DNA of 62,035 bases, counting the filler, from Rhabdomonas costata (lineage: Eukaryota), in NCBI GenBank assembly GCA_019059605.1. It is 27 parts of 27 records of this genome, joined end to end, with 100 filler letters (N's around TTAATTAATTAA, not from the genome) between each part and the next. Parts side by side here need not be neighbours in the genome. Positions count along the whole stretch, not along the records: positions 46,035 to 48,234 come from JAHMHO010004890.1; 26 more parts are not named here. One strand, 5' to 3'. A model generated the notes under the pieces. The model saw only the letters and a list, made by a program, of their open reading frames with translations. It made no database searches and was not told where the DNA came from. This document shows positions 9,213-51,567 of the stretch, piece after piece. Every line of letters begins with the position of its first letter. The stretch's first letter is position 1. The position numbers and the translations under genes are program-made.

Positions 9213-10224
9213 TGTTGTTGGTCACCGTGCTCCGCAGCTTTGCGAAAGAGCTCCAAAGCTTTATCCAGATCCTTGGCAACCCCCTCGCCATTTTTGAAAC
9301 ACAACGCGAGGCTGTTCTGAGACGGCGGGTGGTCTTGCTCCGCAGCCTTTTGAAACCACTCGAAGGCCTTCAGGGGGTCCGGTCTAACCCCATGACCATT
9401 CCTGTAGCACAGTGCTAGGCAGTGCTGTGCAGGCGCGTGACCCTGATCTGCCGCCAAGCCGTACCACTCGAAAGCCTTGCGAAGGTCCTTCTCCGTCCCT
9501 TCGCCACAAAGCAGACACTCCGCGAGGTTGTACTGCCCCGACGCGTCGCCCTGATCTGCAGCCTTGCGGAACAGGTATACCGCCTTCTCGGCATACTTCC
9601 CGACCCCATCGCCATTCTTAAAGCAAAGACCTTGGCGGCACTGCGCCCGTGCCAGGCCCTGATCGGCAGCTTTGCGGTACCACTCATACGCCTTCCTGGG
9701 ATCACGGCTCGTCCCTTGAGCAGTTCGAAAGCATTCCGCAAGGTTGTACTGAGCTGGTGCATAACCCTGGTCGGCGGCCTTCCGAAACCACTTCACCGAT
9801 CTGGGGAGGTTAACCATGACGCCCTCACCATGCTGGTAGCAAAGCCCGAGGCTGTTCTGCGACTGCGCATCGCCCTGATCCGCGGCCTTATGGAACCACT
9901 CGAAGGCCTTTCCATGATCTTTCTCAACCCCCTCGCCATTGAGATAGCACTCTGCCAAGTTGTGTTGAGCGGGGGCGTGGCCCTGATCCGCCGCCTTGTG
10001 CAGCCACTCTGAAGCCTTCTTTGTGTCCTTCTTCACCCCATCCCCATTCTTGAAGCACAGCGCAAGGGCAAACTGAGCCTGAGCGCAGCCATGCTCTGCG
10101 GTCTTCCGGTACCACTCTACGGCTTTTTCCAAGTTCGCGTGATCCATCCCGCGGCCCAGCTTGCTCGGCTCAAACTTGGCGCTGTGACGCACACAGTGAC
10201 CCAAATTAAAAAACCATGGTGCAT
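9213..10224 (-). CDS. Sel1-like repeat (SLR) protein, partial, single long exon
   Basis: Eight complete 36-aa repeats of type AQYNLAECY.NG.GV.KD..KAFEWF.KAADQG, plus one degenerate N-terminal repeat. Runs off the contig end. Confidence 0.95.
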
Positions 10225-11520
10225 CTGCAGCCCGGGTGACCTCGAATAAAAAAGGGAAAAGTGGACGCAATCAGAAATCAGAATAGTTCGTAAAAAAAAT
10301 CAGGCGCAACCAGTGTCGAATTGGAATTCAGTCTTTACCCCACCCGGTTAGCTGAGTCCGAAATTTCCTCGGGACTGCATCATGGACTGCACAAAAAGGC
10401 TGCGAGGCCGTCCTAGCACCCCCTGGCAGTGGCCCTTCAGGCGGCTTTTTTATCTCTCCCACTCCCTTGCCCTCGCAGCCTGAGGATCTGACACAGCAAC
10501 CCCACGTCTGATTATTTTGGTGCACAATCTTTGAGTTGCGCACTTTGAGATGATGTGAACAATGCAAGAACTGACTTTTTTCAATGAACAATGGAGAAGA
10601 ATTTCGATGACTAAAGGAGCAGTTTTTTCGCGCACCTGGAAGCTCCTGTAGAGAAGGCCCTTTGAGCTGGCATGGGCAGGATGGCGGAGTCTGAGGCGGC
10701 CATCAGCGAGGAAGACCAAGTTGGACGAGTACGAGAAGGCTGCACCAAAAGAGATCAAAGACCGAATCTCCATGGATACTGTAGCGGTCGGACATTTTTA
10801 AGAGTATCACAAGTGCCGCGAAGCTGGGCTCATCAATTTTGTCGCTATGACGTTTCGAGGGACCCCTCCTCTCCCCTGTGTTCGTTTCGATTGTAAAATG
10901 GACCACATCACTTCAAGGGGCGATGCATGTCCCCTCGGAATGATTTACTGCTTCTGTTACCCAAATCAGAGGAGAAACCAACATTAACAATGGGAGCACA
11001 GGACCGATTTGAGACCATGGCCCTGATCTTCAAAATTAGATGCAGCACGCAAAGGAGGCGAGGGTACCTCTGTAAGTGGGCTGGCTGGGAACGCGGGCTG
11101 TGAAGGAAAAGTGGGGCAGAGTGGAGGTGGGGTTGAGAGGTTCACAAAGGAACCCCTAAAACCCACAACCAAGTCATTATTAAAGTGATGAAAACCTTTT
11201 GCCACAGATTCAGGTTGCCGTCAAGCTTTGTTTGTTTAGCCTGCTCCCTAACGCTGCAGCGCAATCGACAATGGTATGCACAGGACACAGGAAGCACAGT
11301 AAGAAGCAGAAATTCAGATGAGCTATCCGACTACTCCAATGTCAGCATGGAATGCTGGGGGCGCCAAGCCGTTCGGGATGCAGAAAGGCCCCAGTACGAC
11401 ATGGAACCCACACANNNNNNNNNNNNNNNNNNNNNNNNNNNNNNNNNNNNNNNNNNNNTTAATTAATTAANNNNNNNNNNNNNNNNNNNNNNNNNNNNNN
11501 NNNNNNNNNNNNNNGGGTGG

Positions 11521-29784: not shown

Positions 29785-30147
29785 GTTTGCCCTTCCCCTA
29801 CCCCTTCTCGTGCCATCTCGGTACTCNNNNNNNNNNNNNNNNNNNNNNNNNNNNNNNNNNNNNNNNNNNNTTAATTAATTAANNNNNNNNNNNNNNNNNN
29901 NNNNNNNNNNNNNNNNNNNNNNNNNNGTGGTTGGTGTGTAACTTTCTACCGTTCTGCCCGCGGCCTGCTCGATGTTTTTAACAGCATGGAATGATAGTAT
30001 CGAATTAAGTCAGGCGCCCTTTAGATTATCTGGCAGTTGAGTTGTTTTTCTCTTAAAGGACCAGTGACGATGCCTGGCAGCCGTTTTGACATGCTCGCTA
30101 AGGTTCCAGTTGCGTGGTCGGTAACGTGTGGTGTTTTTCTTTTGCAG

Positions 30148-32110
30148 GTCAGACTACTCTCACGGTTGCTCGGGTGACTCGGAAGACGGATGGCGAAACT
30201 TGCTCCGTCAGCATGCCGCTATCTTGTTCTCCAAGTTCAGGACTCCGAAAACCATCGCGGACTGTGAGATTCCAGAAGGGCTGGAGGTGGCGCAGCACCA
30301 GCCAGGCACCGTCCGATTTTCCATGTACGGCCTGTCCCGCTCCGTCCCTGGAGAGTTGTCCCGGTCCCCGCTGTTTGCAAAGGATATTCAGAAATTACTG
30401 CCTAAGAGCTTCCTGCGAACACTGGTCAGGCTGGTCTTTGCGTTATTTCCGAAGGAGCCCGCCAGCGGTTCGTCGTGCAAGGGCTCATTTCCCCTTCCTG
30501 AGCCTGTCCTCCTCATGGGGCCCACCTCCTACAAAAGTCTCTTGGTGGAAACCTTGGCGCGAATCGTATTTGTTAATTGGCAGTATGCCCTGAGAGTGAT
30601 TCCGCTGTCCCCCAAAACGGAGACCGACACGATAATCGGGGCCCTCCAGCCCTTCACGTGGCGCAGACTGCTTCTTTACATCGCAGTGGTGATCCGCAAT
30701 GCCGCCGCTGCCGCCATTACCACAACCCCAGACTTCGCTGCACTTGTGGAACGCCTCACGACGACCTGTGAAAAGCTGGAACGCGCGTACTTCTCCCAGC
30801 AGAAGGCCAAAGCTACTGAAGCAGAGCACGGCATCCCGAAGGAGTCCCAGCAGAAGGCCGGAGCTGTGGATGCTGTTTCTGCGCTCGTAGACCCAATTGC
30901 AGAAGCAGAGCGAACTCTCGTAAAGGAGATTCGTGAAGTGCGGGAAGGTTTAATTTCTCCCCAGCTGCAGGCGTTGGCCCGGAATTTTCCCGAGACCGAG
31001 GAAAAGTACGAACAGCACAAGCAGCACTACTGGTTCCGCGCGAGCCCCCTAGTGGAGGCCGTGCATTCTGGCGGGCTCGTGGAACTGCAGGACATGAATT
31101 TGGTCAACTCAGCCAACCTGGAGCGGTTGAATTCTCTGCTAGAGGTGGACCCAGTGCTGACGCTTAGTGAAGACCCCGGGTCGAGGGCCGAGGGAGTTAC
31201 GATTTCTCCCTACTTTTGGGTTGTTGCGACAGTTCGTACCCGTGGAGGGGTGGCGACGCCCGAGGTGGCGGAACCCTTTGCATCACGAATGACCACGATC
31301 CTTGCAGAGTACGACGACTGCGAGCTGGCAAATGTGCTGGAAATTGCAGCCCGCCTTGAGATTCGAGCCAGCCATTTGGCCTTTGATGAAGAAAAAGCAG
31401 TGAAAAGCCTCCGCGTCCTCCATGAGGGCTATCGGAACATCAGAGCAAGCTCAGATCGCCAGTTGGCGATGGGTGAACTGACTGTGAGTCAGCTGGTGCG
31501 TTGGCCCCTCTTTCTTCGAGTTCGATTTCACAATGTTGCTCACAATGCCATAGAAGCTGCGCTTCTTCTCGGCATGCGCTTCTTGAGTTTCGACTCGCTT
31601 CCTTCAACCGGTGCCTCGCCCGACCTGATCAAGGAGATTAGTAATCAACTCATATCACAATGTCTTCCTCAGGCGTCCCTCGCATGGGTTTTTGATAATC
31701 CTGCGGAGGAAGACTTGAAGGATCCCTACCGTCACGAAAAAGCTACGATCTTCTTGTCATATTTGAATATTGTCATTCCCAACAGCGGCAGTGTCGCGAA
31801 GCTCCCCGCCCATGATGAGCTTCAGATGGTGCCTTCTCTGCTGCACAACCTTGCCCGTGGTCTCTGCGCATTCTACACTGGCCTCCCGCTGCTTTTGAGC
31901 GGTCCCTGTGCGACAGGGAAGACTGTTTGTGTGAAGGAGCTGGTACGCCTCATGGGCGGCACGGTGGTTTCCATTCATTGCTCTGGCGATTTCACTGAGC
32001 ACGAGTTCAAGGGAAGCTTTGTGCCAGTTGGAAACAGCTTCGACTGGCAGCCTTCCGTCCTGGTGGAGGCCTATGCCACCCATGCCAACGGGGCTGCGTC
32101 ATTCACAATC
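30148..32110 (+). CDS. Midasin/dynein-related tandem AAA+ (AAA_5-type) ATPase, partial 2-kb exon
   Basis: Two consecutive AAA modules: PVLLMGPTSYKS...IIGALQP...SPLVEAVHSGGLVELQDMNL...LERLNSLLE...SRMT, then PLLLSGPCATGKT...FKGSFVP..FDWQPSVLVEA. Confidence 0.85.
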
Positions 32111-32289
32111 GACACCCCACCACCAACNNNNNNNNNNNNNNNNNNNNNNNNNNNNNNNNNNNNNNNNNNNNTTAATTAATTAANNNNNNNNNNNNNNNNN
32201 NNNNNNNNNNNNNNNNNNNNNNNNNNNGGGTGTTGGTGATTGAGCTTCCACTTTGAGGAAATTTCCTTACCTGCAACATTTATTCACAG

Positions 32290-41657: not shown

Positions 41658-43460
41658 ATGGAAGTCTCCGAGCTCCTCTCGATGGCCTTCAGCTTTTTTC
41701 CCGCGGCGTTTCTGGTGCAATCGCTGCTGAAGCGAAGCCAAGCTTTTGGGACCAGCAGTGGTAGCGGGAGTGGCAGTGAAGGGAGGTCTGAGTTTAGCGC
41801 CACGGAAGGGGGCTCGGAGAGGGACTTTGGGGAGCAAACCCGAGTTCTGGACAAGCTTTGCTACATGCTGGGTGTGCTGGATGTAGCGCTGACGGCTTTT
41901 TTAGCTGGAAGCTTGCCCACCCGGTTCTATCTGTGGCACACCCCCAAGGCAGTGGTGCTGACTGCGTTGCGGTGGTACTCCTTCCGGAAGCAGCGGCAGC
42001 ACTACCTGCTATACGATTTCTGCTACTTCGCCAATGCATTGACGCTGTGGTACATCTGGATGCGGCCGCATGATGCGGTGTTATTTCAGGTTTGCGCCAC
42101 CCAAAACTCTCCTTTCTTGACTTCGTGTGCAGGCCTCTTGCGCTCGCATATCGTGATTTCTGGTGTGGGGTGAGGCCGCTTTGCAAATCTGACCATTCCG
42201 TCTTCAACTTTGATGTTTCTGTAAACGTGAATGAAGAATCGGTTGGTCGACACAATGGGGATGTTTAGGCCAGAAAAAGGTCGGTGTGTTTTTGGCTGGC
42301 TTATGTTAGTGAAGGCACTCCTGCTGCCCTACTATTGCACTTCGGCGATATAACAATTTGAGACCAACGCTGCATTCACTTTATTGATTTTTTGGACAAG
42401 GAATCTGTTGAGATCTCGAAGGAATTTTGGGAAGCCCCACGTCCGTTTCTGGAATTTTGGGGAACGGGAACTCCCCGAAGCCTTTTCCCGGAACTCCCCC
42501 TTCGCTCTTCCCCCCACGCAGGTGATGTTTGTCGCTGCCTTTGGGCCGCTGGCGTGGGCCTCGTTTGTGTTTGGGCACTCCGTGATCTTCCACTCGTACT
42601 CCCACATGACCTCGGTGTTCATCCACGTCAGCCCGATGCTGCTTGTGTTTGGGCTGCGATGGCATCCCACTCCGGATTTCACCGTCTGCGACGACTACCC
42701 CGCCTGCAAAGTCTCTATGTCGTCACTGGTGTGGAAAGGGCTGTCCCGGTTCTACATCTGGTGGATCGCGCTGTACTACATCTGGTACATCACTGTGTGC
42801 ACATTTTATTTCATGTGTTCGTTTTGTAATTCTTGGGTGGCTTTTTTGCGTGCATGTTTTCTCTAAGATCGCGTTTCGCAATAGCTTGGGCAGTGAACAT
42901 ATCGGCTGCGCTCTTCCACTGCTTGCCTGCCATGCGGTGGAAGAGAATTTCTGTCCTTTGAATGCGGCTAGGAAATCGTTCGTTGTACTTATCTTACTTG
43001 ATTTATGTGCATTGCTGTCCTTTAAGCCATTGCCTTCCCGGGGTGCGTTCTGCAATGATTGACCATTCCAAGAGCATTGGCCGTTTCTTCCGGTTTTTAG
43101 CATTCGTAGCGGGCGAAAAAATACCTACCCATAAATATCTCAATGGCAAATTGGTCACAAAGTGTCCGCGCCTCCCGCCCGCAGATGCTCATTCCAGAGG
43201 CCTTTATTGTTCCCAAAATTCTCGATAACGCTCAAGGAAATACAAGCATGCGGGATGATTCTTTCATGATTTTCATAATTTGGTTCGTGTGCAATGCTGA
43301 TCTTTGACCACTGCCATTCCGGTCGTTTTTTCTTCGCAGGGTGTTTGTGGTGCTGCACCACCGAGTTCAGTCCCGGGGCTACCAGACTCTGTTTGACCGC
43401 GTCGTGGCCAAGCAGATCAAGTGGCTTGCCACGATTCACCCCAACCTCTTCGTGCAGAAG
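41658..43460 (+). CDS. GPC1: Glycerophosphocholine acyltransferase (GPC1/DUF2838), partial; exons 41658-42089, 42522-42784, 43340-43460
   Basis: Motifs DKLCYMLGV, HYLLYDFCYFAN, GPLAWA...SVIFHSYSHMTSVFIHVSP and RGYQTLFD. Confidence 0.92.
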
Positions 43461-45924: not shown

Positions 45925-46590
45925 CCCCCAACACNNNNNNNNNNNNNNNNNNNNNNNNNNNNNNNNNNNNNNNNNNNNTTAATTAATTAANNNNNNNNNN
46001 NNNNNNNNNNNNNNNNNNNNNNNNNNNNNNNNNNGCCTTCCCTCCTGCGAGCCCAAAAAAAGAATGGAGGGAAAAAGGGGGTGCTCGCATCCTGTTTCCT
46101 ATACTTAGGGCTGAGGTCGTGATGGAGGGGTACTTTGGTTAGGCGGGGGGGGGGTTCTCGCTCCGTAACCCACAGCTTTGCAACCTTTTCTACGAGGCTA
46201 GCTGCAAATCCATTTATTGATTCGCCTCCTTTACACTGCACTGCTCAAACCCATGCGTGTACTCGTGTTTTCGCCGATGCCACAGGCCTGAATCCAAATT
46301 AGAGTAATGATACAAAATGAAACCGAGGAACATATGGTGTAGAGTTTGGGGGTTCTGAGTTCTTCACGAAATCAGGGGTCAATGGGGTCAGTAGCCAGCG
46401 TTGAATATCCACCACGTAGAACCGAGGCACAAAGACAAAGAGGAGGAGGCGGACGGAATTGGAAAATTCGGCTAGCTCGGCGATGCGCACGTGCGGGCAT
46501 AACATAGGCAAAAAAGAGATCAGGGGCGTGTGCGTGAGAGAGAGAGAGTAGATAGTTGTGGAACTGAATGAAACCCACAGAGAAGCAGAC

Positions 46591-48234
46591 CACATCTCCG
46601 ATTCTTCGCAAAGAAGAAAAAAATGCGCTTCATTCTCGGCCAAGACCAGGCTCGAAACTCTGGAAAGCAGCGCGCGAAAATCAAAACAACAGCACATAAA
46701 GCGAAAAACAAAAAGGCAAAACGTTGCAATGGCATACCGCATTTCCCAATCCTCTTGCACCAGCAGGCCTCGAATTGCGTCCTCTTGCCAAAAAAGCTCC
46801 GGCATGCACATGAAGACCCTGGAACGCATGCGTGATCGGAGGGAAGAAGACCTTCTTTCACTTCCCATCTGCCACAGTTGACACAACGGCAACGCAAACC
46901 GAATTTCAGCCTCGTGCCATCCCGCAGTACGTCGTACTGAATCCTCATGGCTCACAGCAATGCCAATCCTGAACGACACAAAGAAGACGAAGCAAGGCTC
47001 GATAACCCGCTCCGAAGCAGTAGCAAGAGGGACATATCACAAATCACAAATCCCCCCAAGCACTGACTAGGGAAAAGCAGACCGCATTGATTCTTCGACT
47101 GACAAGATGGAAGTCAGTGCTTGTGCAAGAATTGCAGCCCTGAAAAGCAGCACCCAAGAACACGCCAAAGGAGAGGTAGGTGGTGCGCAAACCAAAAAGG
47201 ATAGGGCCCCTTTCCACATAAAATGACAAAAAGGGTATGAGTTGGGGTCTTGACAAAATACAAACCACTTTCTGCGCTCTCTTTCCACCAGGAAAGGTCG
47301 GATTGCATTCTCTTCCCACACAAGTGCTGGGACGAGGATTTCCATCCTGAAAGGAAAGTTTCAGGCTGAAACATCGCAAGCTCCAACTTGACCCCGTAAG
47401 CTAAACAGAAAACCTTTCAAAAAAAGCTATCTAATCGCAATGAAAATTCGCGGACAAGGAGTTATTTTGGAGACTAATTCAAAGGCCCGCCGTTTGCGCT
47501 TCGGTGCTGCGCTTGCGGCTGATTCGCAAACAGATAAAGCAGACCGAGGTTGCGACTCATCTCGGACAAGATAACGTCGACGTGTTCTCTCGGCAGAGGC
47601 AAAGATTTTAATCCTGTTGGAAAAAGAAGAAAAAGTGAGGGTACGAGAATCCAGAGATATACAGCAAGCTGCGGTGCAAGCGTACGCCAAATGACACACC
47701 GCCTTCTCCACTCGTCTTCCACAAGCAGGCCTTGAATGGCGTCCTCCTCCCACAAAACCTCTCGCATAAACAAGGTGTAACTGCAAAAAAAAATTGCGCC
47801 ACCACACAAAATGAATGCAATGTCAATCAGAAGCGAACGCAGCCGTTCACCAGCGAAGTTACCCATCCACCAGAAAGAAGCAAACCGAATGTTCGATTCC
47901 TCTTGGAGAAGAAAACGTCGCAGTGATTTCTCCTCGAACAGCAGTATTGGGGTCCTACGGCAGACAATAACGGTGAAACCCCCAGCAAACCCGACTCCAG
48001 CGACATGAAAATGAAGGATCGACGCAGACCGCGAGTCGAAGCTTTCCCCAACTAAAAGCAGTCGCATTGCGCTCTCTTCCGACAATTGGATCGAAACCCT
48101 GAAAACATCACGTATGAGAAAAAAAGACTCGACGGAAAACGAAGTCATACGAATGAATAGCTCGGATACCACGTCTGGAATTCCTCCACGGCGAAACGTC
48201 GACGGATCGTTTCTTCGGTGGACCAAAACAAACC
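46591..48234 (-). CDS. Repeat protein built from homologous phase-2 microexons: (48234)-48170, 48098-48030, 47954-47886, 47780-47700, 47613-47545, 47346-47266, 47139-47083, 46968-46900, 46818-46738, 46659-46591
   Basis: Each complete exon has a pyrimidine tract with a YAG acceptor, ends CG|GT or TG|GT, is 57, 69 or 81 nt long and encodes a hydrophobic-EE...R...L..EE...R unit. Confidence 0.82.
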
Positions 48235-48987: not shown

Positions 48988-50415
48988 TCAGGACCTCGAC
49001 GCTGGGCACCGTGCCTGAGGGTTTGCGGGTTTCCAGAGGCCGGTTTCTTTCCTTGAGAGCCGGGGCTCTATTTTTTGTTGGCAAAGAGATGGGTCGGTGT
49101 GGTTTCTGCGTTGTGCCCACGGGCTTGTCATGATGTCTGCGCCCATTCGCTTTGTGACCCTGGACGGCGCGACGATCTGCGAGGGAGGGATGTATGTTTG
49201 GTGCCACTGGGGGGGTGAGCCGGCTTGAGCGATGCGGACGCGCTCTGGACTTCTGAGAGTAGTGCTGATTGGCCCCTGAGAAAAGCCGTTGCTGGGGATC
49301 ACAATGTTCAATGCAAATGAGAATGTTGCCACGTCCGCATCTTTGGCCGAGGCAGAGGATGCTGGAAGTCCAGGTGATGTTGAGTTATACTGATGTTTAA
49401 AAGTAACGGAATTGGAAGGGTTAGATGGCGGAGGACTGGAGAAGATGCACTTCACCCCGGGATCGCCGGATGCGTAAACTCCCGTTGAAGGGCGGTGGGG
49501 GGGGACAGCTCCTGGGAGATTCGACGGCGGCACCACTGGGTCACCTTGACCTTCAACAGAATGAGGCCGTGAGTCGGAGAATCCCAACAGACCTTGTGAT
49601 GTGGGGAGTTCGGAGAAAACCACTGCAGAGGAGGCCAATCCAGGGGGATCCAGGTCAACTCCCTGCAGAATTGCGCGATCATCCGCTTCAGCGGGTTTAG
49701 ATTGGAAACCTGCGGAGCCACCCATGGGACTTAGGGCCAAGGAAAGGTGCCCAGATCTCAGCCCGTAGCTCAGCCCATCTGGAAGCGGACTAACCGAAGC
49801 AAACCCTAAGCACAACCTCTCGGAAGGGAATCTCCGAAAAACTCCAATGACCACCGAAAGCACTGCTATTAACGTGGCGGTGAGTGGGAGTGAGAGGGCA
49901 ATATCATTGGGCAGACACGCCACGGAAACTACAAGAGCAGTAACCGAAGGAAGAATGCAAGCAAGCGAGGGCATCTCCAGGACCTGACACCACAAAAGCA
50001 TCGCGGCGGGCAAGCAAGGGCAGACCACTACAAGGGCCAAGCGCAGTGCAACTCCGTATACCGCTATGGCAAGGCAAACACACACGGACAGCAGCCAATC
50101 GGAGGCGGCGTATGCCCCCGCACGGCGGCTGCACACCGCACCCAACCCAACGGTACCCAGAAGGCAACTTAGAGGAAAAAAAACGGGGAGGAACAGCCAG
50201 GTTTTCGCTGAGGATGCTGCCACGCAGAACTGCAACGATAGTGCCATGCAGCAGCAGCCACAGAGAACGTGCTGCAGGCTTGGGTGCGACACGGCTAACT
50301 TTGCCACCCAATTCTTCAGAAAAGGCGTCAAAACGCACATTCTTCGGCAACGTAAAAGGAAAAAATGGAGCTTGCTGAACCCGTACAAGTGGTATCTATT
50401 TCGGCTCCAACACAA
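48988..50415 (-). CDS. Hypothetical multi-pass membrane protein with S/P-rich tail (long ORF)
   Basis: 475-codon ORF with several hydrophobic segments followed by a low-complexity region. The start is uncertain. Confidence 0.55.
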   Translation of the reverse strand: MCWSRNRYHLYGFSKLHFFLLRCRRMCVLTPFLKNWVAKLAVSHPSLQHVLCGCCCMALSLQFCVAASSAKTWLFLPVFFPLSCLLGTVGLGAVCSRRAGAYAASDWLLSVCVCLAIAVYGVALRLALVVVCPCLPAAMLLWCQVLEMPSLACILPSVTALVVSVACLPNDIALSLPLTATLIAVLSVVIGVFRRFPSERLCLGFASVSPLPDGLSYGLRSGHLSLALSPMGGSAGFQSKPAEADDRAILQGVDLDPPGLASSAVVFSELPTSQGLLGFSDSRPHSVEGQGDPVVPPSNLPGAVPPHRPSTGVYASGDPGVKCIFSSPPPSNPSNSVTFKHQYNSTSPGLPASSASAKDADVATFSFALNIVIPSNGFSQGPISTTLRSPERVRIAQAGSPPQWHQTYIPPSQIVAPSRVTKRMGADIMTSPWAQRRNHTDPSLCQQKIEPRLSRKETGLWKPANPQARCPASRS

Positions 50416-51000
50416 ACCCTGCTTTCACAAAGCACGCCGTCTAATGCCGCGATTATCTTAAAAAAAAGCATCTTCCATTTCGAGAGAATACAACAACAAG
50501 CGAAGAACTGCTATTAGCAGAGGTTCACCCCACCCNNNNNNNNNNNNNNNNNNNNNNNNNNNNNNNNNNNNNNNNNNNNTTAATTAATTAANNNNNNNNN
50601 NNNNNNNNNNNNNNNNNNNNNNNNNNNNNNNNNNNGTTTTTCGGTTGGACGGTGTGTCTGTGTATACATACATGTGTTGTGTATACATGTGTGGTGTGGT
50701 GTCCCTCGAAAGAATGGGCCCCTTTTGGGGAGTGCATGGGGGATGGGGGGTGGGTGAGTTACTGTTTATTCAATTGATTGATATACCGCAGGTAGAAACG
50801 GCACTGGAAGCCGAAATGCTTCATTGGAATAAATCCATCAACAGACACTGCCTATGTTCCGGAGAGGGGAGTTCCCCCCCCCAAAAAAAAACAGATGCAC
50901 CCATAACCACAACTATGTGTTAATGCGTTGCCGGCGTTGACAGGTGATCCTTGCTCTCAACTTCTTCCTTTCCCTTTTGTGTGCTGTCATTTTCATGCAG

Positions 51001-51567
51001 AGCGTGTCGTTATTTTTCCCAGGACTCAATCCGACCTCCCGGTCCATTGGCAACAGCCCCTCAGTGCTGCTGGTACAGCGTGGCAAGGATCCCAGCAAGG
51101 GCTTATGGGCTCTTCCTGGGGGCAGCCTGGAGTTTGGAGAGACCTTGCTCGAATGCGCTGAGCGGGAGCTGATGGAGGAGACTGGACTCAAGCTTTGCCC
51201 AGGCCAACCCTATCGAACGTATACTGCCCTGGACGTGTTTCAAAAGGACCCCAAGAATCCAGGCACGCAGCTGCTGGTTTCCAGGGTTTCCACCTTGGCA
51301 CTGGTTCTTCCACTTTCTGCATTGCGGCTGCATCTTCGCGTTTGTTTAGGAGGGCCTCCTCTTGGTCACTTTGTGCTGGTTGTTGTGGCTGGATTCTCCC
51401 GTGGAGACCCTGTCCCTGGCGACGATGCCCCGGCAGCACGCTGGGTACCCTACGATTGCATCCCCAGCCTTTCCGAGGGTACTGTGCCAAACCTTGTGAA
51501 AACAATTGATCATGCACTGGAGCTGCTCTCTTCGAACCTCCTCAGTGTGTTGCCTTTGAAGGACTGA
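51001..51567 (+). CDS. Nudix hydrolase (ADP-ribose pyrophosphatase-like); probable intron 51263-51349
   Basis: VLLVQRGKDPSKGLWALPGGSLEFGETLLECAERELMEETGL contains the Nudix box, followed by HFVLV...PGDDA.AARW. Confidence 0.93.
   Translation, partial: SVSLFFPGLNPTSRSIGNSPSVLLVQRGKDPSKGLWALPGGSLEFGETLLECAERELMEETGLKLCPGQPYRTYTALDVFQKDPKNPGTQLLVSRVSTLALVLPLSALRLHLRVCLGGPPLGHFVLVVVAGFSRGDPVPGDDAPAARWVPYDCIPSLSEGTVPNLVKTIDHALELLSSNLLSVLPLKD

Follow-up and report, generated by a model that had tools for sequence, protein, structure and literature searches.

Does a run of short, mutually homologous exons that all keep one reading frame serve to generate many different proteins, or is it what remains when a repeat gene has grown by duplicating its exons? 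This question is raised by a locus on the minus strand of a contig (JAHMHO010004890.1) of the heterotrophic euglenid Rhabdomonas costata (assembly GCA_019059605.1), which lies within the 62,035-nucleotide (nt) stretch of DNA analyzed here, called the window below. A preliminary description, made from the DNA alone, proposed that the contig carries an array of ten homologous, frame-symmetric microexons that act as a combinatorial splicing cassette system. We find that the exons are present as described and that a protein derived from a transcript contains all of them in genomic order. In our judgment, the locus is probably a central stretch of a nuclear protein-coding gene that expanded through exon duplication, made of repeat units of about 23 residues that are encoded by one exon each and are all spliced in order.

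Ten homologous exons share a single phase

The window joins 27 contigs, each about 2.2 kb long and apparently ordered by size, and contains 54 runs of 44 N; the linkers between contigs have the form N44-TTAATTAATTAA-N44. Because the window is a chain of separate contigs, the sequence on either side of the contig under study is unrelated to it, and features that span the linkers are artefactual.

We translated the minus strand of this contig in three frames and located all of the peptides quoted in the preliminary description. The strand holds nine complete exons (69, 69, 81, 69, 81, 57, 69, 81 and 69 nt) and one cut exon, with borders of the form AG|..|GT, which reproduces the number and the lengths given before. 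These exons are called E0 (the cut exon) to E9 below, and the nine complete introns between them I0 to I8. Upstream of each of the nine complete exons is a pyrimidine-rich tract ending in AG, and GT follows directly downstream. All nine begin with the third base of a codon, end with the first two bases of another (phase 2 at both ends) and have a length divisible by three. Seven of them end in CG and two in TG, as does E0, and the first base of the next exon completes the split codon to arginine (Arg) or tryptophan (Trp) at every junction; both the phase and the split Arg/Trp codons had been noted previously. The donor hexamers are likewise identical to those already listed, namely GTCTGC (four times), GTTTGC (twice), GTATGC, GTATCC, GTGTGT and GTTTGT. 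Nine of the ten conform to the pattern GT[C/T/A/G]TG[C/T], and the splice sites appear uniformly strong.

The introns are T-rich and A-poor, and as a result long stop-free frames run across them. Two such open frames, of 252 and 245 residues, read through E0-E3 and E7-E9, respectively. Tandem Repeats Finder did not report an array here, the units being too diverged in their DNA, and a search of the contig against Rfam gave nothing at E <= 1.

A transcript-derived protein joins the exons in genomic order

A profile made from the alignment of the ten exon units (A2), searched among proteins of 71-2000 residues, returned one protein, P0001, of 739 residues (E 1.9e-92). Cluster look-up gave its label as EP00906_Rhabdomonas_costata, with the source name RCo053153 (EukProt). 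By tblastn, residues 228-442 of P0001 reproduce the product of E1-E9 in the order of the genome and without a gap or a mismatch; these 215 consecutive residues are identical to the exon product of the contig across nine junctions. The protein thus holds E0-E9 consecutively and all together. According to the published account of the R. costata genome, the quality of the draft did not permit gene prediction, the protein set was derived from the transcriptome, and the introns that were inspected manually are GT/AG (PMC8219788). Because the proteins come from the transcriptome, and because 739 residues are too long to be encoded by a 2.2-kb contig, P0001 constitutes independent evidence at the level of complementary DNA (cDNA). 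All nine junctions from E0 to E9 are therefore used as the preliminary description predicted, and its exon-intron model is confirmed at each of them.

The 739-residue frame of P0001 is open throughout. The protein begins within a repeat unit and is probably 5'-partial, without an evident leader. Its next exon, which starts from residue 443, is absent from the 556 nt of the contig that follow E9; that exon lies outside the contig, and intron 9 is therefore at least 556 nt long. Positions are collected in Table 1.

Table 1. Features of the repeat gene, with positions counted along the whole window
Feature	Positions	Strand	Description
Contig with repeat gene	46035..48234		2200 bp; linkers on both sides
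E0	48232-48170	-	cut by contig end at 48234; 17 of 18 residues match P0001 210-227, with one E/K difference
E1	48098-48030	-	69 nt, phase 2-2, unit VSIQL...FDSR; identical to P0001 228-250
E2	47954-47886	-	69 nt, phase 2-2; identical to P0001 251-273
E3	47780-47700	-	81 nt, phase 2-2, 27-residue sub-class; counterpart of E8 in super-repeat
E4	47613-47545	-	69 nt, phase 2-2
E5	47346-47266	-	81 nt, phase 2-2, 27-residue sub-class; split Trp codon at end
E6	47139-47083	-	57 nt, phase 2-2, 19-residue unit type
E7	46968-46900	-	69 nt, phase 2-2
E8	46818-46738	-	81 nt, phase 2-2; DNA identity to E3 72%
E9	46659-46591	-	69 nt, phase 2-2; split Trp codon at end
Intron-bearing span, I0-I8 (exons between included)	46660..48169	-	nine complete conventional GT-AG introns
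Intron 9, 5' part	46035..46590	-	donor GTCTGC; 556 nt within contig

The same comparison bears on whether the locus is a working gene at all. The draft is described as made from amplified DNA and as highly fragmented (N50 1194 bp, longest contig 8093 bp, 51.6% GC; PMC8219788), in keeping with a window built from 2.2-kb contigs, and the end of the contig is at odds with the transcript. Both points would suit an artefact of assembly, an array of pseudogene units or a pattern due to chance. Such an origin is nevertheless hardly credible, given 215 residues over nine junctions that agree fully with a transcript product assembled independently, a 739-residue frame that stays open, and codon-position conservation typical of coding sequence. 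The disagreement at the contig end concerns the terminal 12 nt (48223-48234, the first on the minus strand), which give no in-frame match to P0001. Frame 2 reads F-V-L there where P0001 has S-V-L, and an indel of 1 nt close to the end of the contig could remove most of the disagreement; an allele or a paralogous copy is just as likely. The mismatch at 48223-48234 might also account for the assembly break at that place.

Exon inclusion looks constitutive

The preliminary description went beyond the gene model and proposed that differing subsets of exons are skipped, giving proteins that vary in length and sequence. Several features of the array fit such a system: all ten exons are in phase 2 with lengths divisible by three, and a sense codon would be formed at 43 of the 45 possible exon-exon junctions. 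The accompanying statement that any subset splices in frame holds as far as the frame is concerned, but two of those 45 junctions, E0-E9 and E5-E9, would give rise to a TGA. Against the proposal, the single transcript-derived protein carries every exon in order, symmetric phase is an expected by-product of exon duplication, and the splice sites, as noted above, do not differ in apparent strength.

A second form of the product would also speak for variable splicing, and none came up in the protein searches. The A2 profile found no exon-skipped or shuffled form among proteins of 71-2000 residues, P0001 returned only itself among proteins of 406-1294 residues, and the unit profile brought up no further R. 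costata form among 1,835,955,588 representative proteins. Within its own 90% cluster, P0001 is the sole member. This absence of isoforms is weak evidence, because the published R. costata protein set was made non-redundant (PMC8219788). Judged from the one assembled transcript, exon inclusion looks constitutive. A combinatorial cassette is thus very unlikely, and the claim made for it finds no support in the only transcript-derived product, which has all exons in genomic order. By the reasoning of the preliminary description itself, a single constitutive isoform reduces the locus to an ordinary repeat gene that expanded by duplicating its exons.

The array carries the marks of block duplication

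The ten units can be aligned with one another (alignment A1) at a mean column identity of 40%, with one glutamate (Glu) nearly invariant. Run along P0001, the unit profile matches 29 stretches, and among these are units that lie outside the window, did not contribute to the profile and still match it well; thus, the whole of the known product is made of repeat units. The consensus of a unit, of about 23 residues and one exon, is roughly V-[S/P]-I-L-L-S-x-E-x-A-I-R-[R/P/G]-F-L-V-x-E-E-x-x-x-[R/W].

A longer period is superimposed on this unit. Self-similarity of P0001 peaks at offsets of 119, 357, 23 and 238 residues (z 10.5, 9.3, 7.6 and 7.3, respectively), and 119 residues correspond to the five exons E3-E7 (27+23+27+19+23). 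At the DNA level, E3 and E8 form a direct repeat of 83 nt with 77% identity at a spacing of 962 nt; compared as exons, the two are 72% identical (z 15 against shuffles). The 19-residue unit type of E6, placed by eye, recurs at residues 198-216, 351-369, 459-477 and 578-596 of P0001. These results bear out the earlier statement that the units are homologous but diverged, and the five-exon super-repeat is the kind of higher-order duplication that had been suspected from the 81-nt sub-class.

We also made the comparison of exon and intron divergence that the preliminary description had proposed. Pairwise alignments of the three 81-nt exons score well above shuffled sequences (z 4.3, 15.4 and 6.0), whereas the scores for the 70 nt of intron to each side of them stay at the level of shuffled sequence (z -0.5 to 0.4). 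I0-I8 show no mutual similarity beyond the splice signals. Among the 81-nt exons, codon position 2 is the best kept, at 19-20 of 27 positions. That the exons remain recognisable while the introns have drifted, with second codon positions kept best, argues that the peptide units are under purifying selection. When the unit profile was run over the introns, the 556 nt past E9 and the plus strand, it found no hidden or decayed units, and nothing resembling a unit was present in those 556 nt in any frame.

The anatomy of the locus suggests how it may have arisen. The gene would have grown by tandem duplication of blocks consisting of exon plus intron, and the last visible round would have copied a five-exon block of 119 residues, or about 962 nt of DNA. 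After duplication, the introns would have drifted freely, with the exon peptides held by purifying selection. Equal phases and lengths divisible by three would then reflect a requirement placed on any surviving exon duplication, not a device for choosing isoforms. The locus offers a clean, transcript-verified case, in a euglenid, of gene growth by duplicating blocks of short symmetric exons. Genome data for euglenids are only fragmentary, and their introns have been studied mainly for unconventional types (PMC8219788); the nine complete introns here are all conventional GT-AG. Our literature search on exon duplication in euglenids turned up nothing pertinent. Apart from the intron lengths considered next, the finding is an ordinary one: equal phases accompany exon duplication, and there is no sign of a regulated isoform generator.

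Intron lengths are often divisible by three

I0-I8 measure 71, 75, 105, 86, 198, 126, 114, 81 and 78 nt. Seven of these nine lengths are divisible by three (binomial P = 0.0083, calculated post hoc), and five of the seven introns concerned lack an in-frame stop, where about 2.4 would be expected from their composition. This is what one might see if the gene tolerated splicing errors or retained introns, with introns kept divisible by three and stop-free so that unspliced or partly spliced messenger RNAs (mRNAs) encode the full-length protein or isoforms with hydrophobic inserts. The pattern was, however, spotted post hoc in nine introns only, stops are scarce anyway in A-poor, T-rich sequence, and P0001 retains none of these introns. 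Translated, the introns give filler rich in F, L and C, as their pyrimidines dictate, and none of it matches the unit profile. We therefore regard a design of this kind as unlikely.

A broader version of the idea is that the locus is built so that nearly every splicing outcome stays in frame, either to yield many length variants through skipping or retention or to buffer errors; we give it a slim chance. Ciliates have been reported to avoid stop-free introns with lengths divisible by three, and an always-in-frame design, if true, would be the reverse of that avoidance. The excess of stop-free introns divisible by three deserves a genome-wide look in euglenids.

Growth by exon duplication, with every unit spliced in order, remains our preferred account of the locus, and certain observations weigh against it. 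Constitutive inclusion is read from one assembled transcript in a non-redundant set, and minor isoforms would escape notice. Duplication followed by drift does not predict that seven of nine introns should be divisible by three, because the introns have lost all similarity to one another; the excess could be due to chance, could mean that a gene interrupted by dozens of short introns tolerates errors in splicing, or could stem from genuine isoforms with retained introns. The contig may represent an allele, a paralogous copy or an error-prone end and not the exact template of the transcript, because E0 differs by one residue and the 12 nt beside it do not fit. Finally, the structure prediction that had been proposed for the spliced product was run with AlphaFold2 on P0001 without an alignment; it gave a mean predicted local distance difference test (pLDDT) score of 32, which is unusable, and no fold was obtained.

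The product is a charged repeat protein

P0001 is acidic and rich in four residues (E 13.8%, L 12.9%, R 10.1%, A 8.5%), with a net charge of -32 over its 739 residues. Fourteen of its units are exactly 23 residues long, and in these Glu8 is present in 14/14, Arg12 in 12/14, Leu15 in 10/14 and Glu19 in 12/14. Position 23 is Arg in 11 and Trp in three, position 13 is Pro or Gly in five, and position 2 is Pro in four of these 14 units. Over the 20 units that reach the last position of the profile, that position is Arg in 16 and Trp in four.

Charge along P0001 has a period of about 11-12 residues, in agreement with the 11/12-residue E..R periodicity noted in the preliminary description. Each unit appears to be made of two halves of 11-12 residues. 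Both halves contain a conserved E-to-R pair at i/i+4, Pro or Gly is common at the borders of the half-units, and two half-units per unit fit the charge period of about 12 residues. One possibility, put forward tentatively, is that short amphipathic helices follow one another along the protein and form an extended scaffold with a structural, probably cytoskeletal, role; the number of repeats would then determine how long the scaffold is. This suggestion draws on composition and periodicity because the pLDDT of the AlphaFold2 model is too low. A modelled complex of two copies of residues 228-442 scored 0.00, which speaks neither for nor against self-association.

The unit could also be viewed as a docking site for an EF-hand protein of the centrin or calmodulin type, comparable to Sfi1, ciliate centrin-binding proteins and IQ lever arms, each unit of about 23 residues then binding a single light chain. 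Length and spacing (hydrophobic15/16 - x3 - F/W20 - x2 - W/R23) resemble the Sfi1 pattern. The repeats of Sfi1 are basic and amphipathic and carry a conserved Trp with Lys/Arg after it, and the targets of acidic EF-hand proteins are basic amphipathic helices. P0001, however, is net acidic (-32), and its units end in Trp in only 4/20 cases against 16/20 for Arg. Moreover, the Pfam models for Sfi1 and IQ are not among the matches of P0001 at E <= 10, and the unit profile hits no PDB chain at that threshold. A docking array of this type is accordingly highly improbable.

No relative is detected outside Rhabdomonas costata

Searches of sequence databases agree with the preliminary description, which recognised no family. 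In Pfam, the three frames that read through the introns matched no family at E <= 10, and P0001 gave only sub-threshold matches to Tfb2_C (E 0.06) and CEP76-C2 (E 0.11). The 252-residue read-through frame had no match among proteins of 138-441 residues. P0001 matched no PDB chain by sequence at E <= 1, and the ESM Atlas yielded no usable match for either the whole protein or residues 274-511. A metagenome scan with P0001 gave 12 pattern matches, none of which was confirmed.

With the unit profile, only two of the 1,835,955,588 representative proteins scored at E <= 0.001, P0001 itself and a protein of Trypanosoma cruzi. The latter belongs to the DUF1663 'Flagellar Member 3' proteins (P0002-P0006), and we rejected these as spurious relatives. 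They share with the repeat units a motif resembling E-E-D-A-x-R-G-x-L-V-x-E-E, and both organisms belong to the phylum Euglenozoa. The score of 49.5 bits, however, comes from a single match of 18 residues and 12 bits that was counted in each of five identical 65-residue copies. BLASTP of P0001 against P0003, the longest member of the cluster, gave E = 10. P0002 and P0003 belong to Pfam DUF1663 (E 1e-127 and 3e-230; 427 and 766 bits, respectively), a family to which P0001 has no match at E <= 10. The profile search that had been proposed for the exon peptides thus recovered the R. costata protein but no accepted relative elsewhere. By sequence comparison, the units form a lineage-specific repeat family, with no relative detected in Pfam, the PDB or 1.84 billion representative proteins.

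Resemblance to known exon arrays

Vertebrate nebulin and the PEVK region of titin have one module per symmetric exon, are organized in super-repeats and are known to skip exons. They share with the R. costata locus one module per short exon, a single phase, a super-repeat that arose by block duplication and a long, probably structural, array. The sequences are unrelated, a unit here has about 23 residues as opposed to about 35 or 28, and the host is a euglenid. Exon skipping, known in those genes, contrasts with the one transcript seen here, in which all exons are included. We suggest that such one-module-per-exon super-repeat genes are the nearest analogues in kind.

The preliminary description drew its comparisons instead with schistosome micro-exon genes and with Dscam. 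Schistosome micro-exon genes are described as having symmetric exons of 3-81 bp and introns of up to 5 kb (10.1101/2023.06.21.545858). Both kinds of locus have series of short, symmetric exons with lengths divisible by three, and those of R. costata (57-81 nt) fall at the top of the range. The introns differ, being long in schistosomes and 71-198 nt here, with only intron 9 reaching at least 556 nt. The products may differ as well: schistosome micro-exon proteins are secreted, and P0001, probably 5'-partial, shows no evident leader. In the R. costata locus, moreover, the exons are homologous repeats that are all included together. As for Dscam, the resemblance is to tandem, homologous exons of equal phase that arose by duplication. 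In Dscam-type arrays exactly one exon per cluster enters each mRNA, whereas in the R. costata locus nine neighbouring exons are all found in one product. The earlier analogy thus captures the short symmetric exons, but neither the long introns of the schistosome genes nor the one-exon-per-mRNA rule applies here.

Open frames and donor hexamers in other contigs

Several other contigs of the window contain recognizable open frames. A frame of 352 residues (9215-10270, minus strand) holds eight Sel1 repeats (PF08238, E 5.8e-96), and one of 667 residues (30125-32125, plus strand) ends in a dynein-related AAA_5 domain (PF07728, E 3.4e-12) and runs into the contig end. In the adjoining contig, a 478-residue frame (48991-50424, minus strand) matches nothing in Pfam at E <= 0.001. 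Part of a NUDIX domain (PF00293, E 1e-15) is encoded by a further open frame (50941-51564, plus strand), probably one exon of a split gene.

Donor hexamers of the repeat-gene type were also counted in the other 26 contigs. GTCTGC was observed 33 times against 30 expected and GTTTGC 36 times against 51.5, numbers that are uninformative as to the general donor. On the plus strand, an open frame at 41565-42170 matches DUF2838 (PF10998, E 7.2e-23), and the match stops short of the end of the profile near CAG|GTTTGC, at about 42087-42095. This is probably a donor of the same kind as those of the repeat gene, a hint that GT[C/T]TGC may be common among the donors of the R. costata genome.

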